Below, piece after piece: positions 19,037 to 47,289 of a stretch of 52,257 bases of DNA. The stretch comes from Catajapyx aquilonaris. Lineage: Eukaryota. Both the position numbers and the translations under genes were made by a program. The stretch is from the NCBI GenBank assembly GCA_000934665.2, contig KZ538713.1, positions 1 to 52,257 on the forward strand, written 5' to 3'. The notes beneath the pieces are model-generated. The model ran no database searches and had not been told where the DNA came from. It saw nothing but the letters and a program-made list of their open reading frames with translations. Position 1 is the first letter of the stretch. Every line of letters starts with the position of its first letter.

Positions 19037-20334
19037 AGTTGCCGGGGAAACTGTCAATTCCTTCTCAGTATTGTCGCCCAGTTGGCACTACTGTGAAGTT
19101 GTTTACAGAGTCAGTTCCCTTTATGGAACGACAGACACATGACAGACATGTTCTCACTTTGTCACTAATCGGGCCGTTCGAAGACTGCTGGAGGGCTAAC
19201 GTTACACCCTCCCCCTGCGTCCCCGGCGATATGGTGCGCCGAATAGGTACCCCATGCCGCAGGCCTAGGAAAGAGCGAGCGAAGCGAGGGTTTTCCTAGT
19301 TATTAGTTTATTATAATATTAGTACATATTGTTTACATGTGGCGCATCCCTGTATATGTCGAATACCCCCGCCTAGTGCTACTTCCATCCCCTTCCGCCA
19401 GAGTCCTCCCCCTCCCCCTCCCCACCCACTGGTCCACATGGTGCCCCCATCTGGCGTGAANCCCTCCCCTCCCCTTCCCCTTCCCTCCTTCTCCGCCGCC
19501 TCTCCCCACTTTACTGGGACGCCTTTTTTCCAGTAGTCCCCAAGCACTCGGTGGAAGCGGGTCGATCCGGTGTCTGTCCACCCGTGTGAACAACAACAAC
19601 AACAGTGCGTGGGTGTGTGTGTGTCGTGTGTACCGCATACCCGTGGTGTACATACCACACCGTGTGGTGTGACGTGTTTGCTGGTTGGACCGGAGTAGGA
19701 AAAACCGGTTTGCCGCTTTTTGTGCCCGGTTGCTTTGGTTGGTGGAGGAGGGGGTGTTGGAGAAGAGGAGGGCGGTGGGGGGAAAAAAAGTGACGCATAG
19801 AGGTCTTTGATCCTTCGCATTTTGGGATACCCAAAAGGTACGTACCTGTTGCGTACTTACGCTATTGATATGGTAAGTTAAACAAAAGTTGACGTAGCTT
19901 CTGGCGCTTTGCAAAAATCCGTGACGTCAGGAAAGGTTGCCAGGTCGCTGCCCCATTGTGTGTGTGTGCCACATTGTTGCTTACAGACGGCGTAGTGCAT
20001 TACATAACTAATATTTCCACATGACCCCAAAATTCCCCTCCCCCATGTTCTTCAAAACATTATTTTTTTGTTGTACCGTTTATTTGTTACTGTACGTCAA
20101 AACAACGTAATACGACCTTGCCACCTGGTCACCTTGGAGAATGTTTCATCACAGGTATCGGATGATGCCAGACATCTCTGGGTGAGGACCCCCCTTCCAT
20201 ATGATGCTGCAATTTCTCACGTCCTTCAGTGCGCAGTAACTACAGTAATTCACTCAGCCTTGGATGTTTTACAGCTTGTAAATTTAGGCTCGATTCCAGG
20301 AATAGAACGGGAAGTAAACAGAGGTGAATATACC

Positions 20335-20806
20335 CGGTAGATGGTGTTGTGCGGAGATGGACAGCCGGTAGATGGCGTTGGACTAAGAGGGACACCCTGG
20401 TGCTGGACTAACATGGACACTGTAGATGGCGTTGGACTAAGAGGGACACCCTGGTGCTGGACTAACGTGGACACTGTAGATGGCGTTGGACTAAGAGGGA
20501 CACCCTGGTGCTAGACTAACATGGACACTGTAGATGGCGTTGGACTAAGATGGACACTCTGTAGATGGCGTTGGACTAAGATGGACACTCTGTAGATGGC
20601 GTTGGACTAAGATGGACACTGTAGATGGCGTTGGACTAATAGGGACACTCGGTAGATGGCGTTGGACTAATAGGGACACTCGGTAGATGGCGTTGGACTA
20701 AGATGGACACTGTAGATGGCGTTGGACTAAGATGGACACTCTGTAGATGGCGTTGGACTAAGATGGACGCAACAGATGGCAGCACCCTCTGTAGCCATCT
20801 ACCGGC
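20335..20806 (+). repeat. Minisatellite of GTAGATGGCGTTGGACTAA units (CTCF-motif-like)
   Basis: Cores at 20368, 20422, 20476, 20530, 20561, 20592, 20621, 20652, 20683, 20712 and 20743; periods 54,54,54, then 31,31,29,31,31,29,31. Confidence 0.92.
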
Positions 20807-21555
20807 AGATTTGTTTACAAGCTGTCCAATCAACCCCAATCACTCTTCAATTGGGCTTAACAATTCAATCCTTGTACGGTACACGTGCGGAGCCGGATTT
20901 ATTCTTAGAGCTGTTATTTGTAGTCGGCCTACCCCGCTATCTGGTGGACGAAAAAGGCGACGGGGAATCTTTACGATCCCGGGACTTTTTTATTTTTGAA
21001 TCTTGTCCAGGCATTGTTGGGTAGAGGCTACCCGGATTGTGAGAGGCCTGGGTTGAGGCTAAGTCTGGATCGTATTTTCGGAGCGTACAGTGACCCCTGT
21101 TTGCAAGGTCAAGGTGGGTTGTTCATGTAAAAAAAAAAATGTACCTTTGCCCTTCGGGGTTTTCCGGACCGGAACCGTGGCGGGAAATGCCCCGAGAAAA
21201 TTGCAAAGGTCTGTTTTTTGTATATTTACTATGACTTTCACCGTGCGCAGTACGTCGTTGTCATTTTTTTTTGTAATCCTAGCGTGAGTCTGTAAATAAA
21301 GGTTGGGTCTGGACACGCAGATGTTCTGTTGTTGTCCTGACTCGAGTCCTGATTGGCTGTTTTGGGCCGTGAACGACGGGGCAGGAAGTAAACATTGGCA
21401 TTTAGATTACGGCCTGGTTCTAAATGGAACACACTTGGTCGTATGTAATGCACGTGTTTGGTATGAAACGAATCCGAACACTGACAATGGTGTTACGTAA
21501 GTGTGACGTTTGTGATTGTCGTCAGAAAGCGACAACGTATCTTATATGATTTCTG

Positions 21556-22050
21556 TTGTACCTGCGTATTCTAATGTGAATACCGCTTAGAACAGCCAGT
21601 TTGGGTTAACCACCGACCGTTGAGTACGACCATGCCTCAGTGTCCGAAACAGGTACCCCCAAACCAAACCATGGAGACCAAACAGGTGCCTTTAGTTGTA
21701 CCTGCCTACTCTAATGTGTATACCGCTTGGAACAACCCGTTTGGGTCAACCATTGCTCTAAAAATGACAGTTGAGTACGACCATGCTGCAGTGCCCCAAA
21801 GATGGCGGACAGTTCCCCGGATGGACGCCACATCCGGGCAACTGGCCGCCATCTTTGACAACAAGCCGGTTTCTGTTTGTACCTTCAGTTGTACCTACTG
21901 TTTCTAATGTGTATACCGCTTGGAACAACCCGTTTGGGTCAACCATTGCTCTAAAAATGACCGTTGAGTACGACCATGCTGCAGTGCCCCAAAGATGGCG
22001 GACAGTTCCCCGGATGGACGCCACATCCGGGCAACTGGCCGCCATCTTTG
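21556..22050. repeat. 193-bp tandem duplication (two near-identical copies plus an older partial copy), each carrying a 61-bp hairpin
   Basis: Hairpin caaagatggcggacagttccccggatg...catccgggcaactggccgccatctttg at 21797-21857 and 21990-22050. Confidence 0.9.
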
Positions 22051-22363
22051 CGCACCTCTCTAAATGAACCTGGGGAATGTCCGGGCTAATTTTCAAGACT
22101 GGTCTGGTGACTCTGGAAATACCGATGACGCAATGGAGCAGGAAGGCCGAAGAAGGATCGTTGACTCTCTGGAATGCTTAAAGCGGCGTAACGGCCATTC
22201 ATGGGATTAAAATGTGCACACATACAATAATGGGATGGCGGCGTCTGTTTTGCTTCCGTTAGGAGGATTGTTATGTATATGTGTTGATATGTTGAGACAT
22301 GTATGGCCTTTTGCAGGATGGAGCACGACGGAGGGAGAAGAGCGAGCTGATTGGTGTCCAACA

Positions 22364-25300
22364 ATGGACCAGTTAGAGGACCATCCGAGACTAACAGTGT
22401 GTGCGGACAGGTTTAGAGACCTGAGGCCTTGCTGTTGCCACCAGCAGGACACGCTGGATAGACGATGGACACCTAGGTGCCACGATCTGTGTGACAATGA
22501 GTGTCAACAGTGCAGGAGGAGGAACAAGAGGAAAGTGGTGGCGTACGGAGAGTGGAGGTGGTGGAGGAGGAAGTGTGGTCCGCCCGTGACCGGACCATGG
22601 GCCGTTGTCATTGGATTCGCACTTGTGGTCATGGCCTGTGGAGGAGCGCAGGCCCAACCATCACAGGATGGCGGTGAGTACATGCAACAATGCATACATC
22701 CTGGTATCGACGAACCAGGATATAGCGCAACGACGAATTCCACGAAATAACCGGTACCCTGCATTGTCTGCTTATAGATTCATAGAAAGCGTGTCTGTTA
22801 TTGGATAGAAAATGTGCGTAGGTTGTATGCATCAGGGTACTGTACAGCACTAGAAATCGAATGCGCTTAATATAGCATCAGAAATATTGAAGAACTGCAG
22901 TGTAAGTTTACGATACACTGCACAAGCATCTACCCACCTGCTATCGAAATCTGAACGCGATAACTGAGTGCGATAAGTTGTTCATGTCTTGGACATGTCA
23001 CATGGTATATGAGGCTATTCTTGACGAATTTGAGGACCAAACAAATGTGGTTTTGGGACTTTCAATGAGAACCATCAGAAGCACCTATCATTGTGCCATG
23101 TGTCAGGTCTCTGTAGTCTGGAAGTGGGTTAGGTAGCCATTACATATAATTATGTAAAGGAACTTTGCCTTTTATATAGAGACAGATGCGCCTCTTATCG
23201 CCCTCAGTCATCGCATTTGGGTCTCAACGACTGCTTGCAACGCACCGTCCGTCCCTTTTGATTGCGAACGCAAATCTGACCGTCGTCCCCGCCCATCAAA
23301 CAACCCGATAACGACGGTCCGACATTAGCAAGGTACACAAATTAGGACCCGAGTCAACACGCATTGTGCTCGACTATTTTCCAGGGCAAAAACCCTTCAA
23401 AGTACGACCATTGATTGATACACCACTAAAGGCGGCCAAACTATTCCTCGGAAAAAACAGGAATAAGAGCGAGCCAAACGAGGCGTGATTTACGTCACGG
23501 TGTTGGTTTGCCCCGCCCCCTAATTACAACGTTATTCAAACGTGGTTGGGAGCTTTCACCTCATATATAGGGGTAGGGGTTGGTGGGGGGTATATAATTT
23601 TAAAATAAACTTAATACCGGGAGCATTTGCATGTTTGCCACGCTCAGAATGGAAGCAAGGCTTCTATTCTCGGATGTTGACTCACAGGATACCCTTTCAT
23701 AACAGATCGATGAGCCAATAATAGAGTATCAATAGCTGGTTTGATATCTATGGGCACCTTAGCGCTCTATATATAGGGCCGGTTGTGTCGAAGCAATCGG
23801 CTATTTAGCGGTTCGAGGGATTGTCGGGGACCAGTGAAGGACTAGCCGGAGACCAGTGAATGAACAGCCAGAGGACCAGTCACCAGGAGTGAGCAGCCAG
23901 GACAGTCACTAGCGAATGAGCAGCCAGAGGACCAGTGGCCAGAGAATGAGCAGCCAGAGGACCAGTCACCAGCGAATGAGCAGCCAGGGGGCCAGTCACC
24001 AGCGAATGAGCAGCCAGAGGACCAGTGGCCAGAGAATGAGCAGCCAGAGGACCTGTCACCAGCGAATGAGCAGCCAGGGGGCCAGTCACCAGCGAATGAG
24101 CAGCCAGAGGACCAGTCGCCAGCGAATGAGCAGCCAGGGGGCCAGTCATTTAGTGAATGAGCCAAGGGGTAAATCACTCGGCAGTTGAGCGTACAACGGA
24201 CTTGTAAAGAGCCGGACTTGTCGGACTTGAGCCCGGACTTGGCGGACTTGGCGCCAACCGTACAACGGACTTGACGAGTGATTTACCCCTTGGAATGAGC
24301 ATCCAGGGGGCCAGTCACCAGTGAATGAACGGCCAGGGGACCAGTCACCAAAGAATGAATACAGAGCCCAATGAAGGACCACGCGGGGCCCAGGCAAGGC
24401 GCAGTCTGGGACCCCCGAGTCGCACCGTTGTACGTGTGACTAACCCCCTCAGTTTTCGGGTGTGCCTGAGACTCTGAGGGTTGTTTTGGTCTGGCCCCCC
24501 CCCCACCCCCCGGCCCACCATGTCTGCAGCCAGTCCAATCCATTCTCCTCCCGGCAGCGTGAAAAGTGGGCCATGGCACTTTTTCTAGCTTTGGCGTGGC
24601 GTCTGCGTTCCCCGGATGCTGCGCCACGCTTCCTGAGAGAGGGGAGAGAGAGAGAGAGAAACCCTCAGAGTTTTACCTTTTACAGGGGCGCCCCCCAAAA
24701 AATATATAAGGCGGAGAACCGGAGAGGGGGGAGGGGGACCAAGGGCGGGTCTTGTGCCGAAAAAGCGGGTCGATATGGGGCGTCGGGACGGCTGACGACG
24801 CCACTACCCCCCACCCCACACTGACTGAGGGGGAGCGTCAATGGCGTCGTCGGAATAGTGAGGCTCATTCATCGTGTGACCCGTCCGTTGTTCAAAAGGT
24901 GCCCCACGTGTATGTACACTTTCAGGAGTAAGGTAGCAGACCTGAAGCTCAAAATAGTCTCCAAGAGGATCTCCGTCACTACTCAGTGAGAGAGCCGCTC
25001 TTGGAGGCTATTTTGAGCTTCAGGTCTGCTACCTTACTACTGAAAGTGTACATGTACACGTGGGGCACCGAGTGGGGCACCTTTTGAACTGCTGGGTGGA
25101 CACCCCGGACAAACATTGGCACAGACTCTTACCTGAGCCATGATGGCACGCGTTGGGTCACCGTTTCGACGTACGTCCAAAATAGCAGCGTAATACACGG
25201 GCCAAAATGGGCCAACGTTTTCTGGGAGCCCGTGAATCACCCTCCATAATTTCGCAGACACCCATTAAAACCCATTTATGCCACTGACTCACAGTCAGAG

Positions 25301-28300
25301 CCAGACATCTATTTTTGAGCCAGGCCCACCCTCGTATGTTGTTATTGAATAATTAGTAGAGAAGTGTCTACTTGCAGAAAATAAATAGAAGCCTAGGAGG
25401 GGGGGTTTTGTGCGGCGTAGATGTCCGCGTCGTAGTATTTTGACGTCAGCCGACCGACGTCACCGTCGACGGGGCCAAAGAACCGCTGCCCACGACGCCA
25501 AATTAAATCAAAGGGGGGCCGGAAATGAATTGCGGGCCGACGCCATCCCCATCTAGTGACGGGGCCTGGATTGGAGTGTGCTCCCTCGGGGGTCATCCCC
25601 CAGATATGTTTTTTTTTTCCCCAAGCCCTTCACCTGATCCCGTTTTAAAGAGTTTGGGTCAAGGGTAGAGATATTCAGGCAGACGCGTCGGCGCCTTTTG
25701 GTTCAATGGGGCTTTTTGGTATGGCGAAGCTTATGGGGGAGACCCTGGAAGCCTCTCTCTCTGTGTGTGTGTTTGAGCCTTTGGATCAATACTTGAACCT
25801 CGGCCGTATGTACCTGCCGGCATTTTGAAGGCGTGGGTGGAAAACAGAGACGTCACTTTTTTTTTGACGCAGGGGTCAGGTCAGATTTCGTGGGGATGGA
25901 AGGTGATGCCATCTAGCGGTGGGTCAGATGCCTGCCAGAACGAGGGTTTAAAAATTGCTGGGTCTGGAAACATGTTTTGGTATTTAAATGTTTTAAATAT
26001 ATGAAGTACTGTAGTTTCAAAAATTTCAAGCTGATAGCCAGACGGGCGCTGCCATCTAGCGGTGGGTCAGCCTGTAGGACGGTTTTGAACATTTCTGGGC
26101 CTGTAAACATGTTTGTGGCATTAAAATGTTATGAAGTACTGCAGTTTTAAAAATATTCAAGGTGATAGCCAGACAGGTGCTGCCATCGAGCGGTGGGTCA
26201 GTCTGCGTAAAGGATTTTTAAAAAGAGGGAGGCACGTCAACATTAAAATGGCTTAAAATTAAAAATAAATTCATGAAGTGCTTTGAAGAAAATTACCAGG
26301 TGAATCCATGACAGGTGCTGCCATGTGCCATCTAGCGATGGGTCAGCCTGTACAGTATGAGGGTTTTAAAGTTTTTGGAGCGTACATCTTCAAGCCCAAA
26401 AGTAGCATTAAAAGTGGGAAAGCGTTATATCGAGGTTTTACTGTATATGACGTAGTTTTCAAGAATATATATATTCAGGCTGATAGCCCGACAGGTGCAG
26501 CCATCTAGCGGTGGGTCAGAATATGCCTGAAGTGTTTAAAATAATCTGGACGCCTGTCAAAATGGCTTTAAAATGTTTTAAAATGTTTTAAAATGACAAA
26601 ACAGTGTAAAGTGTGCAGTATTTTTATTTTTAAAAAAATCATGCGATGCCGCCACAGATGTTGCCATCTAGCGGTGGGTCAGTCTGCCTGAACGAGTTTT
26701 AAGAAAATCTCGGGGCCTGTAAACATTAATGACATTAAATTGTTGTAAAATTAAAAATAAACGCATGAAGCGTTTGGAAGAAAATTTCAGGTGAATCTAC
26801 GACAGGTGCTGCCATATGCCATCTAGCGATGGGTCAGTCGGCCTGAACGAGTTTTAAGAAAATCTCGATGCCTGTAAACATATTTATGGCATTAAAATGG
26901 TTTAAAATTAAAAATAAACGCAAGTGTTTGGAAGAAAATTTGAGGGGAATCGACGACAGGTGCTGTGCCATCTAGCGGTGGGTCAGTCTGCTCTGAACGA
27001 GTTATTTTAAAATCGCGATGCATGTAAACATATATTGAGGCTTTTTAATAGTTTACACTCTTATTTAAACTGCCGATACAGGCAATACATCAAATGTATT
27101 CGTTTTTTGCACTAGCAGTAGTTCTGTAACATTGAACTGTAAACAGCAGTAAACTATACAGATAATGGTGAAAAGTGAAATGCATGTAAGGGAAGTCTCC
27201 CTGTATAATTATACCGTAAGGTGCTCAGACCTCAATCTCGTATTTATCTATCTATCACTTATTATGTGAAGCAGTGTTAAAATGAAGCTAATGGTCCGAC
27301 AGGTGCTGCCATCTAGCGGTGGGTCAGTCTGCCCTTAATGAGTTATTTTAAAATCGCGAAGGCCTGTGAACATATTTTGAGCCTTTAAAATGATTTAAAA
27401 TTTAAACTTAACATATGAAGCAGTGTACAAAAAAGTGATGGCCCGACAAGTGCTGCCATCTAGCGGTGGGTCACTGCCTGACCAATTTGTTTAAAAATGG
27501 CGCCGCTAATACGCACAACTGCTGATTTTGCTGATGAATAGAGCTTAATTGGCGAATATCTTCACACTGGGTTGGCTCCTGTATATTATTTCGCCCGACT
27601 TGAAACGCAGTTGATTCGAAAAGGTCAGTTGCATTGACAACACCCCATGCTGCTGAGCCTGAGTCGTGGGGGGATTTGTCAATAAATTTCAATGTCATGA
27701 GAGAGGAATATTAAGGACGGCCTCATTGAGCACACTTCCTTTCTCTGGAAGAGTTAAAAAAGAAACGCGCAAAACACACGCTCTACTGCGCCATAGGGAC
27801 GGTGGGGTAGGGGGGGGTGGGGGATTTAAAGTTGCGCAAAAATGGCGGGTATTACAACCGGATTTATATGTTGTAACCGGATGGAAAAGGCTGAATTTAT
27901 ATACAGTATTTGGTATTTAATGTAAGTATATTTTTGCAGTGTTTTCCGGCTGGCCCACCGCTAGATGTCAGCATCGCCTGGAAATTATGTTAATGCGTTA
28001 CACACTTATTTTTAGCTGTAAAATATTTTTAACAGCATTATATATGCCATTAAAAATATACATGAATATTTGCAAGGTCACTCACCTAATATATTAGGTC
28101 AGCGACCTTGCAAATATTCATGTACGAAACCTACCCCATGCACCCCATATGTACCCATATGTACTCGAGTCTTGCAGTAAAACACTGTAACCTTGTGCTG
28201 TCAATTTGCAAAAATGGGATCAATATCGTGAAATAATAGGTCAGTTAAGACACGTGCTATAGTTTTTGTTAGTTTGCAAAAATTTGTTGGCGAAAGTATA

Positions 28301-31300
28301 GGGGTCTAGACTGGTCGACATTGCGTGCAGTCTTGCGAAACTGTTGCGCACATTTAACAGGGTTTTTGCGTGAGTTTTTTTTATGTCGTGGGGGAGAGGT
28401 CAGTGACTCTGGATGGGTGAGGGGTGCTTACTCATAGGAGACTAATTTTACCTGGGTATGAATAAAAGTGAATATGAATGACCTTTGACCTCTTGACCCA
28501 CAGTGTGCCAGAGCATTGACATCAGGAACAGCGTGGATATGTTCCAGCGACTCAAAGGCTGTAGGGTGATTGAGGGGTTCCTACAGATCCTTCTGATTGA
28601 CCATGCTAACGAGTCAGAGTACCAGAACCTGAGGTTTCCAGAGCTGACCGAGGTGACCGGGTACTTCCTGCTGTACCGGGTGTATGGCCTGCGCACCCTC
28701 AGACACATCTTTCCCAACCTGGCGGTCATCCGGGGGAACAAGCTCTTCTTCAACTACGCCTTCGTGGTCTTCGAGGTCCTCCATATGCAGGAGATTGGCC
28801 TCCCTGGACTCACAGACATCCTCAGGGGCAGCGTCCGGATTGAGAAGAACCCTAACCTCTGCTACGTGGACACCGTGGACTGGGACCTCATCGCTAAGGC
28901 TGGAAAAGGCGGACACTTCATCAAGGTATGGCCTCAAAATAGGTTCCTAAATTTGAACATCTTGACCAATTTTTGTCAATTGTTCACAGGGGAACAAAGC
29001 GAGCGACGAGTGTCCCAACATCTGTCCCAGCGAGTGTCCCAGGTCGTCGCACTCCCTCCAGCTCCTGTGTTGGAACAGCCAGCACTGTCAGAAAGGTGAC
29101 CGACTATTTTTGAGATGTGCATATGGGGTCTACCTGTCACACAGTTTGTCCTCTAGACAGGACATGTCCCCAATTTGGGTCCAGGGCATGTGTCCAAGTC
29201 ACACACACCTGAAATAGACATGTCAGCAAGTACATGGGAAAAAATGTAACTCGAGGATGTTGTTTGTCACTCATGTACACAGCGTTATTATTTTTTTTAT
29301 GCTTGTTGTTTTGCCGGAGGGCTTTTTTTATTTTTAAAATTTAGTGCCTCATAAAAGTGGGAGGCCATTTGCATGGAAAGAATGGAGGAAGGAAATGTGC
29401 TGAGGTTTTTTTCCCCCCTTTCTGTCATTTGTTTAACGAGTGTGTATGCATAACAGATCTGTATTTCAGCCGATTATATGTGGGGGTGGGGGTGGAATAA
29501 TGGTTATGAATCTTTCAAGCGGATGATGACGTTGGCATTGTGCTAACCTAAACCGGAAACATTAGGTTTAACGTTAGTGGTTTGAGTTTTTTAATGGGGG
29601 GAAGTTGTGTTGGTTGTAAGGAGGGTTTCAGGGGATTGGGAGGGGGAGGGAAACAGAGGTTATCAGATTGATTGACAGGTGTGGGATCAGGTGATGTCAC
29701 CAGTACATATCTGAGGGATATGGATTTCATGGATGTGTTTGTGACACGCGACTGTTTATCAGAATGGGATAAGTGACGGATCTGATTTTATCTGGCGTCT
29801 ATGTAAAGGTTAGAAATAATTTATGTGTAAATATGCATTAATATACGGTAGAGTACATATGTACTTTCTGTACGTAACTTGATCCAGTGTGATTGGGTAC
29901 AGCAAGTTTCCGGTGCTGCATGTGCCGTGTTTGCCTGCTTGCCAAGCTTGTTTTATTCCGGTCACATTGCCTTCCCCGTAGAATCTGATTTGCAATTAAG
30001 GTTCTTTCTGCACACAAGGAGGAGGATGTAAAGTTGTTGACAAGGTTCCCACAGGTGGGATGTTGTTTCCTGCCTCCCCCCCTCCCCTTCACCTTTGGCA
30101 ATATCTAAGGGGCCACGTGGAAACTTTCCCATGGGGAAGTGTGTTGAGCTTTTCAGAATATTTGATGTGCGTCTGATTCAAATTTTGTTTGTTTCAGTGT
30201 GCGACCAGTGTGGGTCGCTGGCCTGCAATGGGTCAGTCTGCTGCCACGAGCAGTGCTTGGGGGGGTGCAGGGGTCCTCTCCAGAGAGATTGCGTGGCCTG
30301 CAGGCATGCCGTCCTCAACGGGGACTGCATCGAGCACTGCCCATCAGAGACATACCTGGTGAGTGCTGTCATCGCGTGGGTTCAAGTCACACCACTTCTT
30401 GCGTTCTCTCAGCGGCACAATCTGGTCCTAAAACTGGGGTTAAAGACCTGAAATGCAGATAGCCTTTTGCACCCGAAGTCTAGTTAATTTCCGGTCGGAA
30501 AGGAGGCAAAATCCCTGCCGCTTCACATCTCAGGTTTCCTTCTGATCAGCAGAATTTGAAGGGGTTTCCTCATGTATATAAAAGGCTACTCCATTGGGTT
30601 CATCAGGCATTGAACCAAGGCTACCACTGTTTTGTGGGAAGAGTGCAATGCACTTTGGAGGAAAAACAGGCTGGCCTTATAACCAGGAAAACATGGCTGT
30701 GCCCATTTCTGCCCTACATATTGTGTGGTGGATGTTGACATGCTGTAATAATTATTGCCTCTGCAGTACCTCCAGCGCAGATGTGTGACAGACTTTGAAT
30801 GCATGGATATGCCGCCCCCGCTGGATCAGTATTATGAGACTGGCCTCAATTGGAAGCCGTTCAACCTCACCTGCACACTCAAGTGCCCTCCAGGATTCGA
30901 GGAAGTCAAGGAAGGAAACATGTATACCTGCCGAGAATGCAAAGGTGATTGAGAGAGCCTTCCTGGCATTGGACTAGTGTCATTATCAGCATTTTGTCAT
31001 TTTGGACAGGCAAGTGCCAGAAGGAGTGCGTCGGATTGAATGTGGACAGCATCTCAGCAGCTCAGAAGCTCAGAGGATGTACTTACATCAGGGGAGCTCT
31101 GGAGATCCAGATTGGAGGAGGAAGTGAGTCGCCTTTTTCCACATCATTTCCCTGGAGCTTTGGGGAAGGACGGCATTGAACAGCTAATCCAAATTGCTTT
31201 TCTGTTCTTTAGAGAATGTCATCAAGGAGCTGGAAGAAAATCTGAATTCCATTGAGGAGGTTGAAGATTACGTGAAAGTGAGTCGGTCGTTTCCACTGGT

Positions 31301-34300
31301 GTCCCTCAACTTTCTCAAGTCCTTGAGAATTATCCATGGAAAGAGGCCGGAAAGAGACCAGTAAGGAGTTCATCTTGGAATGTTGGGTTTTTGATTGGCA
31401 TGTGTTCATTCATTGTTGCGTTATAGATATGCCCTGGTTGTGTATGAGAATCAGAATCTGCAGGAGCTCTGGAACTGGACTAGCAGAGCACACCCACTTG
31501 AAATCAGAGGCAAGAGCAAGTTTTTTTTCCACTTCAACCCGAAACTCTGCCTGGAGAAGATCGAGCAGCTTAGGATTGTCACAGGATTGCCCGAGTTTGA
31601 CCCTGCGGATGTGGCTCCAAATTCCAATGGAGACAAAGTAGCATGTGAGTTTGGAAGAATATTAGAAAAATATTTACAAATTTTAATGGTGCTGGTCAAT
31701 TTTGCAGGCGAACTGGAGAGGCTCAACTTGGTGGTGGACAAGAAAGCTCCAAAGGCAGTTGTGCTGCAGTGGGACAACTTCAGGAGGCACCTGCCCGACA
31801 GGAGGTCTCTGCTGGGATACATAGTCTCTTATATCGAGGCCCCATACCAGAACATCTCTCTCTACGAAGGAAGGGATGCATGTGGAGGAGACGGGTTAGT
31901 TATTGTGCCACACTTTTATTTGTGTGCATAAATTGAGTTCATGACATTTTCCTTCCTCCTACCATTCCTACACAGGTGGAAAGTGGATGATGTATCTGCT
32001 AATGATGACATCAACTCTTCCTCCACTGGACCTGAGGTTGAATACGAGTCTCACATAATTACCCAGCTGAAGCCTTTCACCCAGTATGCAGTGTACGTGA
32101 AGACCTACACCATTGCCTCTGAACGTCGTGGAGCAGAGAGCAACATCACATACTTCACCACCCATCCAGACACTCCCTCTCCGCCAGTTGAGCTTCAGGG
32201 TCATTCCAGGTCACCCTCCCAGATTGCCATAGACTGGAAGGCACCCTCGTACCCGAATGGCAACGTCACATACTACAGGGTGTACCTCCACGTAGAGCAG
32301 GATGACCGAGACTTCCTGGACCAAAGGGATTATTGCAAGGAACCTCCGTTGCCCTCAGACCACAAGAAGAAGAAGGAGGGGGAGATTTGGGAAGACCCGG
32401 ACAAAAAGGGGTCGTTTTCAGGCCAAGGCGTTGATGGAGAACCATGTTGCGCATGCCCCAAAAACAAGAAGCAGCTGGAGCAGGAGGAGCAGGAGATTCA
32501 GTTCCAGATTCACTTTGAGGACTTCCTGCATAATCAGGTTTACATTAAAAGGTAAGCGTGTGATATGCTCCTCTACTTACAAACAAATCAGGATCAGTAT
32601 AACTCGGCTCATACCTGGAGACTCGCAGGAAACCAACACCTCCTGCATCAACTTATGCTTTTCAATCCTTGCAGGCAGGACATTTCTGACAAGAAGCGTC
32701 AACGTCGTTCCATCTCGTCAGTTCCGTGGGACCTACCGATCCCAGCTCCACTCTTAGGCAACTCCACCATGCCCACTCCAACCTCTGAACGTCCCCCACA
32801 GGAGATGTTCACCCAGCCAAAATACTTCGTGAATCAGACCCACCTTACCATTGGGAATCTGTCCCACTTTACGGAGTACACCATTGCAGTGGAGGCCTGC
32901 CGTGAGAGCCACCCGGAGATCAAAGTGGACAGGAAGGTGTGCAGCACCAAGAGCATAATCACCATCCGTACTCTGCCCTTGTCAGTAGCGGACGCAGTTG
33001 ATTCAAGAGGTGTCTCTCTGGAGGTGTCAAACCACACTTCAGGCAGAGTCAGATTGCGATGGGAGGAAGTCAGGCGTCCCAACGGACTTGTGGTGGCCTA
33101 CCACATAGAGTACAAGCGAGCAGATATTGAGAGTGTGAAGCCCACAGTTGAGTGCATCACCAGGAAGCAGTTTGAGCAGGGGGGCAGGTCTCACGAGATT
33201 GGGAACCTGGCTCCTGGTAACTACAGCTTGAGGCTCGCTGCCACCTCCCTGGCGGGGATCGGGAATTACACTGCACCCAGATACATTCTAATCAGAGTGA
33301 GTGTCTTGGCATCTTCGTAATTGGTAGCTGTTCAACGTGATTCATTCTTCATTTTTGCCTGCAGGAGCCAACCAACAGACTCTCTACGGAAACCATTGCG
33401 GCCATATGTGCAGGGGTCCTTCTGGTTGTGGTGATGGTTGCAGTGACAGGAGCTTTCTATTATCGCAAGAAGATTTCTCAGACCATTCCAAACGGGATAT
33501 TGTTTGCTTCCGTCAATCCAGAGTATGTCAGCGCTGGGGACGGTAAGTGTGCCTGAGTTGTTGAACATGCATTGTAATGACTTGCATTCTGGTGAATGAA
33601 AAATAACTTGTTTTGTGCTTCCAGTGTATGTTCCGGATGAGTGGGAAGTACCCCGTGAAAAAATAGAGCTGATCCGTGAGCTGGGCCAAGGTTCATTTGG
33701 AATGGTCTATGAGGGACTGGCCATAGATCTAGAGGAGGATCAGGGGAGCATCAAGTGTGCCGTCAAGACTGTCAATGAGCATGCATCCGATCGGGACAGG
33801 ATTGAGTTCCTAAACGAAGCTTCTGTCATGAAGTGAGTGCCTTACCATATGCAATTACAACTCAATGCCATATGCAGTTTAATTTATGGTGCCAATTAGC
33901 GAATCCGCAGGAGTGCATGCCAACTGTGCAAACAAATGCAGTGTTCCTTAATAGCAAGAAGCATGCCATAAATCACAAGGTCCTGTTCATTCAGCATGCC
34001 TGTTCCTCTATTTCGTAGGGCTTTCAACTGCCACCATGTAGTGAAGCTTCTGGGTGTGGTGTCAAAGGGTCAGCCGACCCTGGTGGTAATGGAGCTAATG
34101 GCCAGTGGTGACCTGAAGAGCTACCTCCGCTCCCACCGTCCAGACTGCCCTGCAGAAAATCCCTCCGACCAGCAGCCACCCACCTTGAAGCGAATTCTCC
34201 AGATGGCAGCAGAGATAGCAGATGGGATGGCCTATCTTGCGGCCAAGAAGTTTGTCCACCGGGATCTGGCTGCCCGCAACTGCATGGTGGCCGAGGACCT

Positions 34301-35218
34301 GACTGTCAAGATAGGGGACTTTGGGATGACCAGGGACATCTACGAGACAGACTACTACAGGAAGGGAAGCAAGGGACTCCTGCCAGTCAGGTGGATGTCA
34401 CCAGAGAGTCTGAAGGACGGGGTGTTCACCTCCCAGTCTGATGTCTGGAGCTATGGAGTTGTGCTCTGGGAGATGGCCACCCTTGCCTCACAGCCTTACC
34501 AGGTTTGAGAAATTACAGAGGAACAAATATGTCATTTCACACTTTGATAGGTCATGAACTCGTCTTTGGCACTCAAAAGCTGCTGATGTTAATTTAGGAT
34601 GTGCACATTGCTCGATTGACACGATTTTTCACGCAGGGCCTGTCCAATGAGCAAGTTCTCCGCTACGTGATTGATGGAGGAATAATGGAGCGTCCTGAGA
34701 ACTGCCCAGAGAAACTGTACGAGCTGATGACTGTTTGCTGGCAGCATTCGCCCCACGCTCGCCCTCGCTTTATGGACCTAGTCTCGCTCCTGCTCACTGA
34801 CGTCAGCCCTGAGTTTTCCCAAGTGTCCTTCTACCATGGGGCAGAGGCGCAGGAGCTCCGGGCTCAGAAGGAGACTCACCTGCACAGGGAGAGGGCTCAG
34901 GAAGCGGAGGAGGAGGAAGACTTAAGTGCCAGTGAGAGTGACGAGGAGGAAGCCACCCCGCTGACTCCCCTGAGGACAGGCATCGTGTTCTGTCCAAGGA
35001 ACAGTGGGTCCGAGAGTGAAGGGAGTGACGAGAGTGTGGGAGAACCAGAGTTGAGAGAGGTCAGGACTGACACCATGGCCGTTGTCAACAGGGAGGACAG
35101 CGGGGGGTTGGCCACGGTCAACTCGGCTTCCAGCGAAGGGAGCAAGGCCAGCGGGAGAAGTGCCGCCAATGGGTTCATCAGTCACAGGACGCCAGTGATG
35201 AAAACTACTGAGTGCTAG
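22364..35218 (+). CDS. InR: Insulin/IGF-like peptide receptor, paralogue a (canonical), 15 exons, ~1497 aa
   Basis: Exons 22364-22673, 28504-28925, 28990-29095, 30198-30358, 30767-30944, 31010-31123, 31213-31360, 31427-31644, 31708-31894, 31976-32551, 32675-33296, 33365-33542, 33625-33832, 34019-34502, 34637-35218. All GT-AG and phase-consistent (4494 nt). Domains: L1 (CQSIDIRN...FPNLAVIRG), furin-like Cys-rich, L2, FnIII, CCAC triplet, alpha[16 protein letters not shown] cleavage site, TM, NPEY, kinase [23 protein letters not shown]. The start ATG was chosen by homology with paralogue b. Confidence 0.97.
23830..24370. repeat. 30-bp minisatellite (aatgagcagccagaggaccagtcaccagcg) in InR-a intron 1, interrupted by cggacttg repeats
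   Basis: About 9 well-preserved units at 23880-24150, with degenerate flanking units. Confidence 0.92.
24890..25089. mobile_element. 200-bp nested palindrome/MITE in InR-a intron 1
   Basis: Outer arms gttcaaaaggtgccccac / gtggggcaccttttgaac; inner arms agtaaggtagcagacctgaagctcaaaatag / ctattttgagcttcaggtctgctaccttact (same family as 9524-10175). Confidence 0.8.
25901..27973 (-). repeat. Array of ~130-175 bp units with conserved core GCCATCTAGCGGTGGGTCAG (CTCF-like) and AT-rich variable spacers
   Basis: Cores start at 25908, 26051, 26182, 26327, 26500, 26663, 26818, 26967, 27308 and 27455; one inverted copy at 27954. Confidence 0.9.
28059..28124. repeat. 66-bp near-perfect palindrome
   Basis: tacatgaatatttgcaaggtc...cctaatatattagg...gaccttgcaaatattcatgta. 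Confidence 0.85.
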
Positions 35219-39442: not shown

Positions 39443-42400
39443 CTAATGGCTACTCGAATATCTCATATCATTCAGCGTCAGTGGCGTACTGTAACAAAAC
39501 CCGTTGGCAGCTCCCAGATCTTTGCTTATGTTGCAATAGACTGAATCACTTGATTCCATCCTGGGACTCCCTTCTCGACTGATCCTGATCACAATTGCGC
39601 CGTCTTCCGCAGCATCCGTGAATGATCCTGGTTGCTCTTCGTAATCATTACTTTCAGACCCGCTGCTCCCTAGACCAACCCCAATCCCCGGTGTGAGAAA
39701 TGTCAATGGAGTTGCATCCTCTTCAGTCATGTCTTCACTTTCATTGGTGCTTGAGCTTTCCTCATGTAGTCGTTGCCTGTACATGCTGAATTTTTCCTTG
39801 GCCCGAAGTGCTAGGGCCTCCTCCCCGTGGTAGAAGGACACTTGGTGGAACTCAGGGCTGACATCAAGGAGCAGGAGAGAGATCAGTTCCATGAAGTTTG
39901 GGCGGTTGTTTGGAGTGTACTCCCAGCATATAGTCATGAGTTCGTAGAGCCTCTTCGGACAGTTTACTGGTTGCTCCATTATGCCCCCTTCTGTGATGTA
40001 GCAGAGGACTTGTTCGTTTGACAGGCCCTGAAGGAAAGGAAAGGATTTGTATTGAGTAATTGATGGAGCAGACAATATTTTAAGTGATTGCATTTTAGAC
40101 CTGGTATGGCTGCATGGCGAGGGTGGCCATCTCCCAGAGCACAACTCCATAGCTCCAGACGTCTGTCTGTGAGGTGAACACCCCGTCCTTCAGACTCTCG
40201 GGTGACATCCACCTGACTGGCAGGAGTCCCTTGCTTCCCTTTCTGTAGTAGTCTGTCTCGTAGATGTCCCTGGTCATCCCAAAGTCCCCTATCTTGACAG
40301 TCAGGTCCTCGGCCACCATGCAGTTGCGGGCAGCCAGATCCCGGTGGACAAACTTCTTGGCCGCAAGATAGGCCATCCCATCAGCTATTTCTGCTGCCAT
40401 CTGGAAGACCCGCTTCAGAGTGGGTGGCTGTCGGTTGGATGGGTTTTCTGCAGGGCAGTCTGGACGGTGGGAGCGGAGGTAGCTCTTCAGGTCACCACTG
40501 GCCATTAGCTCCATTACCACCAGGGTTGGCTGGCCCTGTGATACCACACCCAGAAGCTTGACTATGTGGTGGCAGTTGAATGCTCTGCAGGGGGAGACAT
40601 ATTGAGTAATGATGCTGAAGAACATTGCAGACTAGTAAACGCTAGGGCTACTTACTTCATGACAGAGGCTTCATTGAGAAACTCAATGTGGTCCCTAGTG
40701 GAAGCATTTTCATTCACGGTCTTAACTGCGCAGTTGATCTTTCCCTGACCCTCCTCCAGGTCCATGGCCACTCCCTCATAGACCATTCCAAATGAACCTT
40801 GACCCAGTTCCTTGGTTAGCTCTACTTTGCTCCGGGGTATTTCCCACTCGTCCAGAACGTATGCTGCAATGCCAACTTCCATGAGTAAACACTGCAATCA
40901 TATTTCTGCGTTATTACTTACCATCACATACACTGGCATATTCTGGATTGACAGACGCAAATAGGATCCCATTCGTTATAGATTTAAATGATTTCCTGTA
41001 GTAATACACAGCTCCTGCCACCACCACACCAGTCAGGAGCACCCCTACTGTTATGGCTCCAACAATGTACGCAGGCACCTCATCTGGTGCAGCATGTGCT
41101 GGTCCCTATTGCAATGTCGTAATTGATAACGTGAGTCTTTTGCATTAATTTTTATTCTCATCAAAACAGCTTACCTGGAGGAAGACATATCTGGGTGCAG
41201 TGTATTTTCCCACCCCGGCCAAGGAGGCTGCGGCCAGCCTCAGACTGTAGTTACCAGGAGCCAGGTTCTCCACCTCGTGCAGCCTGCCCCTCTGCTCAAA
41301 CTGCTTCCTGGTGATGCACTCGACTGTGGGCTTGGCACTGGGAATGTCTGCCCTCTTGTACTCGATGTGGTAAGCCAAGACAAGCCCATTGTAGAGCTTC
41401 ACGGCCTCCCACTTCAGACTGATCTTGCCTGAGGTGTTGTTAGACACCTGCACCGTGACTCCCTTTGAGTCAATCAAGTCTGCTTCGGAGAGAGAAAGGG
41501 TGCGGATGGTGACCAAGCTCTGTGAGCTGCACACCATGGAGTCATCCCAGATCTCAGGGTGCCTGTCACGGCAAGCTTCCACTGCAATGTTGTACTTTGT
41601 AAAATGGGTCAGGTTCTCTATGGTGAAGTTGGTATTGCTGGTCCTGTACTGAGGCTGGTCCTGCACAGAGCGCCGTTCATGTTTCTTGTCAAGTCTGAAA
41701 CAGGACACAAAAATTGGTGAATTAAGGCAGTCGACAAACAATTATATTGAATCCAGCTTGCATGAGAGTTACAGTATGAGCCTCACTTTTTGACATAGAC
41801 TTGGTCTTGCACGAAGTCCTCAAAATTAATCTTAGACTGAACCACCTGCTCCTGCACCTCCAACTTGTCCTTTGGGCACTGGCAACACTCCTTACCCAAA
41901 CCATCCAGAAAAAATACTTCCTTCTTCTTGTCGACCTCCACCTTCTTCTTGTCTACCTGCACTTCCTCCTCCTTCTTCTTCACCTTATTGTGAAAAGAGG
42001 ACAACTGTGGGTTCTTGCAATAGTCCCTCTGGTCCAGGATGTCCCGGTCATCCTTCACCAAGTGGAGGTACACATTATAGTAGGTCACTTGGCCTTTGGG
42101 ATGCAAAGGGGCCTTCCAGACAATGGCAATCTGGGAGGGTGACCTGGCATGGCCCTGGAGGTCAACTGGAGCGGAGGGCGTGTCTGGATGGGTGGTGAAG
42201 TAGACAATGTTGCTCTCCGCTCCAATACGCTCTGGGGTAACAGTGTAGGTCTTCACATACACTGGGTAAGTCTTCACATACACGGCATACTGGGTGAATG
42301 GCTTCAGCTGCTGGAGCATGTAGGCCTCGTGTTCAGGCTTTGGTCCGATGGTTGCATTGGTGTAAGTAGTGGGGACATCATCTACCTTCCACCTTCTTGT

Positions 42401-45400
42401 ACAAGTAGTGGTGGACAAACTAATGTTAGCAACAGGTGACATCAAAAGAATACATGCCATGTACTGACCCATCACGTGCTCCTCTAGCCTCATAGAGAGA
42501 TATGTTTTGGTCTGGTGCCTCAGTGTAGGACACCATGTACCCCAGAAGTGTCCTGTCATCATCAAGTTTGTTCCGGAAATTTCTGTCCCATTGAAGAGTC
42601 ACATTCGTTGACGACTTGTTGTGTATCACTAGATTCAGCTGCTCCAACTTGCCACCTGGACATGAGAAATGTCACTCACAATTCAGTGCATACCAGACCA
42701 TCGTACAACTTACATGCGACGTTATCTCCATTAGAGTTGGAAGCAATGTCTGCGTCTTCTGCTGGAGGAAGTCCTGTGACGTTGAGGAGCATCTCGATTT
42801 TCTCCAGACACAGTTTAGGATTGAAGTGGAAGCGCATCTTGTTGCCTTTACCACCAATGCGGAGTTTGTGTTCTCGATTTGACCAGTCCCACAGGTCATG
42901 CAGGTTCTGGTTCTCGTAAACTACCAGGGCGTACCTGCGTCCCCAAAGACATCAAATCTCATATTGAACATACTGAAGAGACAAGACCAACCGATTTTTC
43001 TCCGGCTTCTTCCCATGGATGAATCGAAGTGACTTCAGGAAGTCAAGCGACACCAGAGGAAACGACCAACTGATCTTCACGTAATCATCCACTTCCTCGA
43101 TGGCACCCAAGTTGTCTTCCAGCTCTTTGATGACATTCTCTAAGGATCAACATATCTGTGTCACAACCTTTTCTGACAATCATCTTCACAACTTCAGAAC
43201 TCTACATACACAACTATATACAACTCCACAACTTCAGAACTCCACAACTTTAGAACTCCACAACTTTAGAACTCCACAACTTTAGAACTCCACAACTTCA
43301 GAACTCCACACAATTCTACAACTCCACAACATCCCATGCATCAATGGTTTTGTGGGGTGTTGTGGACGAGTTCTGGTTGTAGAGTTCTGAAGTTGTAGAG
43401 GTGTGTGGAGTTGTGGAGTTCTCTGTCACTTTGTGACCCTATGAACTCTGTGGAATCCGATGAATGCATTGACTCACTTCCTCCTTCGATCCGAATCTGC
43501 AGAGATCCTCGGATGTGCGTGCATCCTTGAAGTCGTCGTGCTGCTGAAATGCTGTTGACCAACAATGCATTGCATTCCTTCTGGCATTTTCCTGTCACAA
43601 TGAGAAAGAAAGTGTCCTCATGAGAAAGTCAAGATCATCCTCATGTCCGTACCTTTGCATTCTCCGCATGTGTGTTTGCCACCTTCTGTGACTTCCTCGT
43701 ATCCTGGAGGACAGTTGAGGGTGCAGGTGAAGTTGAAGGGCTTCCAGTGAATACTAGCTGTGTCGTGGAGCTTAATGTCCATGATGGTTGGTGGAGGCAT
43801 GGCCAGACACTCGGACTCGGTAACACACCGACGTTTCAGGTACTGTCGAGATGCAAGTGTTATCGTCTAATATACTTACAAGGGAACGACCAAGGTCGGT
43901 CGCCTCCGATTTGGTTTAAACTCGTTTGAGGGGTCACTCATGTGCTTTAGACACGGTGGTGAAAGTCCTAGATGCCACTGTCCATCAGTTTCCGAGATAT
44001 GAGCGACAGAAACATCCGAATTTTGGCCGCGCGTATAGGGGCCAAATAGCGGATGTTTCTGTCGCTCATATCTCGGAAACGGATGGATAGTGGCATCTAG
44101 GACTTTCACCACCGTGTCTAACGCACATGAGTGACCCCTCAAGCGAGTTTAAACCAAATCGGAGGCGACCGACCTTGGTCATTCCCTTGTTAGGGTAAGC
44201 GAAAAGCTAACCAGATACTCCTTGGAGCCGATGGAACAGTGATCGACACAGTTTCCGTCCAAGACTGCGTGACGACATGCGAAACAGTCCGTTGAAAGCG
44301 GACCTGAACATCCTCCCAGACACTGCTCGTGGCAACAGTACTGTCCATAGCACGCTTTTCCTTCACAGTGGTCGCACACTGGAAAGGGCATTGTCAACAG
44401 TAAAACGTCACAGCTAGGACACCTCTTCAGTAAGTACCACCCACATATTGTACCAAAAGTGCGCGAGAACACATATACTATTGTGTGGAAACTACGTAAA
44501 TTGTGAGGGTACCCGCATTTTCCCCGTACTACTGATAACGTGTCCAAAGGTGGGCTTTTGTTCCACAAATACCAAGAGTTGACCCTTGTCCTATATTGAG
44601 GAAAATGAGTATCAACGACCTGCCTGAACAGAAACAACACAACATCCGGTCGTAGTACGCCCACGTAGTCTGGCGTATGTTTTTCAAATGGAATCACCGG
44701 ATCCTCCTGCATATCTTAAAGAGTTTATGGGAAGTCGTAAAAGACACTTGTGGGCTGGCGGACAAAACATGGCCGTAAAAATTTAAAAAGGGCAGTAAAC
44801 AACTCTAAAATGGCACGACCAACAGTGATCGGACGGTTCTTACGTGTCTGACAATGATGACTGCTCCAACAAAGGGTCTGAGTGGAGTTGAGCAACTTCG
44901 GACAGTCTTTGGGACAGATGTCCGGACACTCGTCGCTCGCTTTGTTTCCCTAAGATGGACAGATGTTAAAGACAATGAGGATGAGGTGGACATCCACTGA
45001 CCTTGATGAAGTGTCCGCCTTTCCCATCCTTAGCGATGATGTCCCAGTCCACGGTGTTCACATAGCACAAGTTGGAGTTCCCCGCAATCCGGACACTTCC
45101 CTTGAGGATGTCCGTGAGTCCAGATAGGCCAATCTCCTGCATGTGAATGACCTCGAAGACCACGAAGGCATAGTTGAAGAAGAGCTTGTTCCCACGGATG
45201 ACCGCCAGGTTGGGGAAGATGTGTCGGAGGGTACGCAGGCCGTACACTCGGTACAGCAGGACGTACCCGGTCACCTCGGTCAGCTCTGGGAAACTCAGGT
45301 TATGGTACTCTGACTCGTTGGCATTGTCAATCAGAAGGATATGGAGGGCACCTTCGATGACCCTGCATCCACGTAGTTTCTGGAACTTGTTCACGTTGTT

Positions 45401-45899
45401 CCGGATTTCCATTCCCTGGCACACTGTGGGTATTTTTAAACACAGTGATTTGCTGACGGACATGACCCGCATCCGTCAGAGATTCCTATCAGGTGAACCC
45501 TTCGACACGTGGAGTCAAAATGTCATTTCTGAATATAACTTGTGACGCACGTTGTCACCTGCAGCTTATAGTTAAAACCCATCAGACGCATATAAGCAAA
45601 TCGTAGGTGGTCCTCAAAACCGGCCCTAAACTAACCTAACCTTCCTTGCGGATACAGCTATCTTCAGCGGATACAAAAACCTATGGGCCAGCTGCGGAGA
45701 CCACCTGCAATTTGCTTATATGCAACCAGGACTTACCGCCATCCTTGGAAGGCTGACCCTGTGCCATGACCATAAGGGTCATGACCCACAACCAGGTCAT
45801 GGTCTGACCCCACTTCATCCACTTCTTTCTGGACTGTTGTCTGTTGTCCCACTTAGGTGTCCATCGTCTGTCCAGCAGCAGGTCAACCAAGTGGTCCAT
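39443..45899 (-). CDS. InR: Insulin/IGF-like peptide receptor, paralogue b (divergent), 15 exons, ~1434 aa
   Basis: Exons 45899-45737, 45423-45002, 44949-44844, 44378-44212, 43842-43653, 43591-43478, 43139-42992, 42934-42714, 42655-42469, 42392-41787 (NAGNAG alternative 42395), 41694-41175, 41105-40922, 40863-40656, 40584-40101, 40027-39443. Same intron positions and phases as InR-a; no stop or frameshift seen (4305 nt). NPEY and all kinase motifs are intact. Confidence 0.96.
43190..43420. repeat. 16-bp minisatellite (aactccacaactttag) with inverted copies, InR-b intron 6
   Basis: Tandem units at 43190-43330; reverse-complement-like units at 43350-43420. Confidence 0.85.
43879..44189. mobile_element. 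PIF/Harbinger (Tourist)-like MITE, near-complete palindrome, in InR-b intron 4
   Basis: Arms of ~150 bp caagggaacgaccaaggtcggtcgcctccg... / ...cggaggcgaccgaccttggtcattcccttg, flanked on both sides by TTA (43876-43878, 44190-44192). Confidence 0.85.
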
Positions 45900-47289
45900 T
45901 GCTGTTCCCACCTATTGTCACCCTCTGCGTACCAGCCAGCAAGTGTATGCCTGTGAACTGCTGATCCGAATGAAAGTGGAGTGTCTGCCGGGTTCATATG
46001 ATTCATGGACGGAGGAGGAGGTGGTGGTGGAGGGACAACAGGGGGTGGGAGGAAGGGCCTCAGACAGACGGGCCGCGTACTCAGGTGGCAGCTTGCAGAA
46101 ATAAGTGGCGTAATGATAAGCCTTTTTATGTAGGCATCATGTAATCTGGTTGTCAACAATGTGCATGGAAAATGCATGTTCCCACCTGTCTGGAGAGAGG
46201 CTGCATATATGAGTAGAATCAACTTGACCTTTGACCTCAGATGTCAATATGTACCAGTTGATCACTAATCATGGCAAGTTAATGGCTATACAATTTTGAT
46301 AATATGGCAGAACAGTTTGTACCGACACACTTGTCACATCATCAGTTAATCAACAAAGACACAACAATAATATTATTGTGTCATCAACAAGCTAACACCA
46401 ATTATTTATTGGTGTTGGCCAGTTGACAAGCATAGACACTGATGAATATTTAATATTTAATCTTTAAGTGATAATGCCTAGTTTCATACTACCTCACTTA
46501 AAGCGGCATGCAGGTGTATGGAGATTCATGATCTCCGGGGTGGCTATACTGGCATGCCGGTCTAGGCGAGGGTTTCTGAAGCACAACATTATCGCAATCT
46601 CTATGAAAATTATTACCGTAAGAAATGTGTAATGTCCTGTGGAAGGATGGGGGTTACGGTGAAGTTGAGTGGTAATGCAGAGTAATTGAAATTCATAGAA
46701 ATCATTTATTGCATTCTTTGTCTGGCTTATCTACAGGATACGCAGCTGTTTTTATCAAAACCGAAAAAGTTGAGAGAGTAAATGGAATAGTATTTTTTTC
46801 CCCTTCCCCCACACTATGATTTTTTTTTTTAAATTATTCCATTGTCATTGGTTACTTTTGGAGAGTTACGGTGGATTACAGGCCTTGAGAGGTCAAGACA
46901 TACAGAGAGGGATGGTGGAAGAAAACTATTATTGTCCAAAGTGTTAATAAGCCCACAAACATGGATTGTAATAGTAAAAATTTTTTAGAGCATATTATAT
47001 ACAGCACCTACATAGAATTTTTAGATCTTTTCAACAATGTACACAGCTGCCAAATTAGGTTCCAGATTTGTTTCATATTTTTTGCATAGCCAACAATCCC
47101 TGACTAACTTTGAAACCAATCCCTTTGGAAACGTAATAAACCTGACATAAGAGCACCTCTTTTTCTTTACCTATTCGAGACAAATTGGTCCACAATAAGT
47201 AAAAACAAAAAAAAAATCAACAAAAAAAAATTGTAAATGTATATATCACCATGCTTTCTCTTTCAATACAAAATAGTCTTTTTGCCAGC

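Follow-up and report, generated by a model that had tools for sequence, protein, structure and literature searches.

We asked why the first coding intron of an insulin-receptor gene of Catajapyx aquilonaris should carry a regular series of short, almost unchanging motifs within otherwise drifting AT-rich DNA, and which protein these motifs might serve. The window, i.e. the whole stretch analysed (52,257 nucleotides, contig KZ538713.1), contains two such genes, InR-a and InR-b, arranged tail-to-tail. The PDB entries matched by the kinase exon are insulin and IGF1 receptors. The exon 3' of the motif series shows at most 72% identity to its well-covered best matches, chiefly insect receptors, and 83% to InR-b, the sole other copy found genome-wide; the pair is probably a lineage-specific duplication.

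A tandem motif array in the first coding intron of InR-a

The intron (22674..28503, plus strand; 5,830 bp) was assigned from splice motifs with a donor at 22674 and an acceptor at 28503, from the reading frame and from the InR-b junction, and untranslated exons may lie further upstream. The same junction is present in InR-b, where the intron measures 313 bp and contains neither a CTCF-type motif nor an array. Within the InR-a intron, a degenerate tandem array at 25907..27474 (minus strand) consists of ten units of about 151 bp (SD 12, insertion removed), each with a near-invariant 21-bp core. Scanning the whole window with the 21-mer and a tolerance of six mismatches led to ten plus-strand copies starting at 25907, 26050, 26181, 26326, 26499, 26662, 26817, 26966, 27307 and 27454, each with zero or one mismatch, and to an eleventh, inverted core at 27950..27970 (plus strand) with two mismatches, one of them in the GGC of the motif. 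Beyond these a single further match was detected in the window, at 50747 with six mismatches. The CTCF-type motif sits on the minus strand in the ten direct copies, all of which are oriented to InR-a exon 1, and the inverted copy points toward exon 2, away from the array. Of the two flanks of the inverted copy, one shows a weak relationship to the unit (P about 0.02) and the other none (P about 0.12). The sequence-only reading of this DNA had counted ten motifs including one inverted copy; array and inversion were confirmed and the total was corrected to eleven, while its nine core-to-core spacings (143, 131, 145, 173, 163, 155, 149, 341 and 147 bp) were reproduced exactly. Its proposal that the core fits a CTCF consensus also held, as nine of the ten direct copies lie within one mismatch of the 14-mer (four exact, five with one mismatch, the last with two) and the inverted copy differs at one position. 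Motif positions that are otherwise invariant are altered in two copies, namely copy 3 and the inverted one.

The 341-bp spacing is explained by a dispersed repeat of 186 bp bearing a (CTAT)n-like tail (27071..27256, plus strand), which is inserted in unit 8 and adds to a unit of 155 bp. The spacer of unit 4 contains a fragment of about 50 bp from a high-copy dispersed repeat (26394..26446, unstranded) that resembles a MITE end. Read depth over the array parts free of dispersed repeats equals that of the single-copy flanks, and contig sets from three separate assemblies span the array with zero letter differences, all from one sample that is possibly the source of the window and hence not independent of it. 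By depth and contigs, read with that possible common origin in mind, the array is not an assembly collapse. Reads of run X5 cover it only at the dispersed-repeat pieces.

The sequence-only reading had named the internal repeat of a common transposon as an origin that would undo its interpretation. An exact 19-mer search of the genome gave seven matches, all inside the InR-a array, and BLAST of the array against the same genome gave 45 other matches, all on the two inserted repeat fragments; neither search found dispersed copies of the unit of about 150 bp. The unit is thus locus-specific and single-copy and belongs to no common transposon. One MITE, a palindrome of about 530 bp whose terminal repeats are flanked by TA, does contain several CTCF-like motifs (e.g. 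G000:C20:144116; loci L128-L138) and accounts for most of the 100 motif-pair matches listed out of 339. It probably exists in hundreds of copies, which could seed CTCF sites, and is unrelated to the array unit (best E 0.064).

Further features of the region were recorded. Up to the array and within it the CpG observed/expected ratio is 0.76-0.83, falling to 0.45 in the InR-a body, a drop that coincides with the exon-rich region. Likewise, the two gene bodies (28503-35218 and 39443-45900) are CpG-depleted at 0.45 and 0.53 compared to about 0.8 at 19-28 kb, which suggests gene-body methylation in C. aquilonaris. The same intron holds a 30-bp minisatellite at 23852-24359, where nearby dispersed repeats raise the depth. 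Just upstream of exon 1, a 193-bp two-copy repeat (21689-22050) has two AAGATGGCGG words per copy in opposite orientation, which we take to resemble the YY1/Pho motif. Rfam gave no hit in the array and 11 sub-threshold matches elsewhere in 19500-29000 (E up to 0.5).

Conservation of the core and identity of the motif

Nine units were aligned, leaving out the insertion of unit 8 and excluding unit 10 and the inverted copy, which have no full spacer. Mean pairwise identity was 0.96 in the 21-bp core and 0.60 in the 123 spacer columns, and in 20,000 column shuffles the identity of the best 21-column window seen in the data was never reached, the highest shuffle giving 0.88. A maximum-likelihood tree of the spacers had a length of 2.27, predicting 47.6 substitutions in 21 nt, against which the nine cores show at most 4 (Poisson P about 5e-16); as this tree was built on an automatic alignment of AT-rich DNA it may overstate divergence, and halving the spacer divergence still gave P near 1e-6 by hand arithmetic. 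Base composition does not explain the core identity, because GC-majority spacer columns (0.57) are no better kept than AT-majority ones (0.61). Perfect matches extended past the core by a median of 0 nt on either side (45 pairs). As the spacers are homologous, with some pairs up to 90% identical, the structure is a decayed tandem repeat and not a set of sites that evolved independently. The near-invariant core among drifting spacers described in the sequence-only reading was therefore borne out by the very alignment that could have refuted it, and the deficit of substitutions agrees with its idea of selection on a CTCF-type motif inside a decaying repeat.

The identity of the motif was approached through the genome and the published sites. 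The 13-mer core pattern has 632 matches genome-wide, compared to 62 for a control of the same dinucleotide composition, i.e. an enrichment of about 10-fold, and 16 for the reversed pattern. A sample of 80 loci with 85 sites, taken from the first 100 listed of the 632 matches, included four near-identical copies of one repeat, one local duplicate pair and about ten sites with short similarities, the flanks of the remaining sites being unrelated. A CTCF orthologue, located through Pfam PF23611, is encoded on contig G000:C1497. Its exons are collinear with residues 263-335, 335-380 and 380-481 of human CTCF, the recognition helices of fingers 3-7 are conserved for the most part, and the fingers are preceded by a YDF motif. 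A degenerate finger-3 peptide pattern had found no match in the same genome, since the coding sequence of that finger is interrupted by an intron and the peptide itself deviates. The array consensus core is identical in 13 of 15 bases to the chicken HS4 site as printed in PMC12885311, and it carries the CC, AG and GGC features that PMC1904468 names for CTCF sites. For Drosophila, CTCF occupancy is reported to be predicted by match strength (PMC1904468) and CTCF motifs to be under purifying selection (PMC3491045). A vertebrate-type upstream CTGCAGTTCC-like motif, the partner of fingers 9-11, is absent from the array, where positions -17 to -8 are unconserved and gave no match. Among the dispersed sites a weak A[GT]TT signal was detected at -13 (8 of 81 vs 1.1 expected). 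These sites (L047-L126) also show upstream TTGTG and TGACGT words, and the A[GT]TT signal stands where the vertebrate upstream motif would lie; part of this may derive from an old repeat family. Taken as a whole, the cores are likely to be bound by CTCF.

The 5' block, the spacers and other motif arrays

The conserved stretch is longer than the motif. Directly 5' of the CTCF core lies an 8-bp block (in copy 1 at 25920..25927, minus strand) that reads CTGACCCA on the motif strand and contains, on the plus strand, GGGTCA, which we take to be a nuclear-receptor half-site. This block has one change in the ten direct copies where about 18 are expected (P about 3e-7) and is better kept than motif positions 1 and 14, so the invariant block of the array spans -7 to +13 and is shifted 5' relative to the dispersed motif. 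It was not part of the sequence-only reading, nor is it part of the dispersed genome-wide motif, which is near-uninformative over this region except for C at -2. According to PMC12885311, finger 8 of human CTCF touches only the backbone at bases 5' of the core. CTCF alone therefore fails to explain the whole block, because its 5' bases outlast the motif ends, the dispersed sites are uninformative there and finger 8 makes backbone contacts only. TGACC at the array spacing was found next to the motif in 0 of 81 dispersed sites, and TGACC plus core has 27 matches genome-wide outside the array vs 5 with the pattern reversed, which does not exceed the enrichment of the core itself, so that the pairing is particular to the InR-a array. 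Nine of these 27 loci were fetched, and none resembles the unit beyond the core.

From the inverted copy to exon 2, a segment of 527 bp (27977..28503, unstranded) is rich in RGGTCA, likewise assumed to be a nuclear-receptor half-site. Seven occurrences were counted vs 0.5 expected, a post hoc count in which sites are partly palindromic or adjacent repeats and hence non-independent; they include three elements of IR1 type, each off by one base, as well as DR1 and DR2 pairs that are perfect. The segment is a candidate nuclear-receptor element and serves as a lead only. It fits, by analogy, the control of Drosophila InR, which PMC10461493 describes as exerted mainly by intronic elements, EcR-dependent ones included. 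A palindrome with 33-bp arms at 28059-28124, at about single-copy depth, has an IR1-like element in each arm. A perfect DR1 occurs at 46225-46237 (minus strand) upstream of InR-b exon 1, and the same 13-mer is found at 28479 near the InR-a exon 2 acceptor.

The near-nucleosomal periodicity proposed in the sequence-only reading was not supported. The period drifts from 131 to 173 bp with one gap doubled by insertion, and the gaps between cores measure 110-152 bp, seven of the eight uninterrupted ones being below the 147 bp that a nucleosome wraps. Moreover, 10-bp AA/TT periodicity showed no peak in the array. A nucleosome-phased satellite was rejected on these grounds, and the period most likely reflects the inherited unit length. 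The gaps are 64% AT, with a density of A/T runs three times that of the rest of the intron. Binding at most cores would be expected to keep nucleosomes out instead of phasing them. Drosophila CTCF alone is reported not to phase nucleosomes (10.64898/2026.10.19.760054).

Upstream of exon 1, a second minisatellite at 20334..20806 (plus strand), unrelated to the array and younger, with periods of 29-54 bp, contains 13 plus-strand motif-like copies, five of them with at most two mismatches to the consensus, plus a single copy on the minus strand. With InR-a exon 1 in between, this minisatellite and the intronic array face each other. A genome-wide search for two motifs on one strand, 100-180 bp from each other, returned 26 matches distributed over 17 contigs, comprising the InR-a array, six MITE copies as judged from the displayed sequence, and ten others. 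At these ten contigs and four further loci we found several arrays in which the motif recurs in tandem every 16-50 bp, their units falling by eye into at least six unrelated kinds; C1280 alone has two gaps of 130-160 bp, and ten such units occur at none of the loci. Of the other arrays (L023, L032, L141, L142, L145, L147, L149, L150 and L151), some are homogeneous and some have decayed spacers. Near motif neighbours in both orientations are enriched around the sampled dispersed sites. Face-to-face motif pairs 8-24 bp apart number 70 genome-wide vs 0 for the reversed control, many of them looking like small inverted duplications, and one such pair at 20769-20806 closes the upstream minisatellite.

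A putative insulator and its alternatives

The observations are best explained by a locus-specific tandem repeat whose core is held near-invariant and which is likely to be a cluster of CTCF sites acting as a local insulator in the InR-a intron, a reading to which we assign a probability of about 0.6. A unit of about 150 bp was duplicated to ten copies plus one inverted, after which the spacers took up about 40% divergence, indels and the two repeat insertions; the cores were spared, most likely by purifying selection on the CTCF site that the unit contained. CTCF would then occupy the cores, and as most of the AT-rich gaps could not accommodate a nucleosome, the array may form an open platform of about 1.6 kb for several proteins. 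With CP190-type cofactors as in Drosophila, the array could screen the InR-a promoter region from elements deeper in the intron and gene body or, alternatively, might limit chromatin spreading. A second factor, probably a nuclear receptor, may read the adjoining GGGTCA. CP190 is described as older than insects (PMC5094011). For flies, PMC7880997 reports that single CTCF sites block enhancers and that CTCF contributes to less than 10% of boundaries, and another study that binding of insulator proteins is a poor predictor of insulator function and that fly insulators gave the looping model no support (10.1101/2022.07.18.500462). Against an insulator counts the fact that InR-b is without such an array.

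Two preprints state that invertebrate CTCF does not halt cohesin although the YxF motif is kept. A vertebrate-style loop anchor is ranked low because of this report and of the lack of support for looping in flies. Accordingly, we regard it as unlikely that repeated tandem amplification of CTCF sites has produced orientation-coded anchors here, for which the two independent InR-a arrays facing each other across exon 1, the outward-directed end site and the extended 21-bp site could be taken as signs. If true, such anchors would mean polarity-dependent CTCF looping in a protostome, against the current view, and a duplicated hormone-receptor gene would have gained its own regulatory domain through them.

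Among the remaining alternatives, a composite enhancer or silencer is a real but clearly lesser possibility. Here each unit would combine the CTCF site with the GGGTCA half-site and often an E-box (CANNTG, by our assumption), either tuning InR-a or tethering hormone-response elements to its promoter. The retention of the 8-bp block speaks for it, as do a CANNTG just 3' of the motif in eight of ten copies, with changes falling in NN, and the half-site cluster adjoining the array on the exon 2 side, but the E-box is shifted by insertions of 2-7 bp in three copies, and the TGACC counts at dispersed sites and genome-wide given above argue against a composite site. That a CTCF-bound repeat can work as an enhancer is reported for Firre R0 (PMC4820808). 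Given the richness of the genome in C2H2 genes, the position of the invariant block from -7 to +13, offset 5' from the dispersed motif, could also be explained by a different sequence-specific protein, e.g. another zinc-finger factor, which reads the 20-21 bp block and to which the CTCF likeness is partial; this is improbable, as the 3' 14 bases are the tenfold-enriched motif that fits published CTCF sites, and CTCF is present.

Equally improbable is a history free of selection, in which germline CTCF-bound DNA duplicates readily and the likeness of the cores is due to gene conversion or to local protection. At human germline-bound sites, those of CTCF included, short insertions are reported to duplicate motifs and may build clusters neutrally (PMC8559717). 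The genome studied here has many motif minisatellites, and by analogy such a duplication bias could lie behind the origin of its motif arrays; moreover, where the related copies 4 and 7 have a variant in common, copy 8 shows the majority base, as would fit conversion or reversion. This covers the origin of the array and not its persistence, because identity ends abruptly at the core edge without tails, and a duplication bias does not explain such sharp-edged retention. In addition, 21 bp is far below the usual tract requirements of gene conversion. Least probable by some distance is an RNA element in which the inverted copy pairs with any one direct copy in the pre-mRNA in a docking/selector style. 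The conserved block does coincide with the stretch complemented by the inverted copy, the predicted duplexes have energies between -43 and -62 kcal/mol, and a G-U pair results from one of the inverted copy's two changes, but such a duplex is expected from any inverted duplicate, four direct-copy changes break pairs with no compensatory changes, and neither exon-like frames nor conserved splice signals were evident between the copies, in line with the absence of Rfam hits from the array.

For the preferred reading as a CTCF-site cluster, several known systems may be compared. ICCE and DXZ4 of the mammalian X are, as described in PMC6125249, likewise intronic and locus-specific with about ten diverged units, and their conservation is confined to the short CTCF motifs plus part of the sequence flanking the core; their units, however, measure 3-5 kb instead of 150 bp, and binding and X-inactivation-dependent super-loop anchoring have been shown for them, whereas the host here is an arthropod and the function of its array a predicted one. 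The mouse DXPas34 minisatellite also has one CTCF site per monomer beside a regulated promoter, with the motif conserved across monomer types, but its rodent monomers are CpG-rich and 30-34 bp long, in contrast to the AT-rich 150-bp units with decayed spacers found here (PMC3149622). Firre R0 is similar as an intronic local repeat with CTCF recruitment kept despite divergence, but it is an enhancer without a canonical motif, whereas in InR-a the canonical motif is the conserved part (PMC4820808). Fab-8, Fab-6 and Mcp of Drosophila share the core motif and an arthropod CTCF, and by analogy their local enhancer blocking with CP190 is the likely mode for the InR-a array, although they comprise one or two sites in non-repeated DNA and not eleven tandem-duplicated ones (PMC1904468; PMC7880997). 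Tandem repeats that keep a CTCF motif are thus already known in mammals (ICCE, DXZ4, DXPas34), and the arthropod 150-bp array is a variant thereof; no tandem CTCF-motif array of an arthropod was met in the titles and abstract beginnings covered by our limited literature search.

The decayed spacers act as an internal neutral control, so that a single locus suffices to reveal that some ten redundant sites of CTCF type are under strong selection, and the contrast of core and spacer pinpoints the bases that matter, eight of them outside the standard motif. The recurrence of unrelated motif arrays suggests that duplicating a site in tandem is, in this genome, a general way of making strong CTCF clusters. 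Most of what is known about CTCF function in arthropods comes from Drosophila, in which CTCF plays a minor part at boundaries. A compact element of eleven sites beside a duplicated insulin-receptor gene provides a substrate for testing the influence of copy number and orientation in an arthropod.
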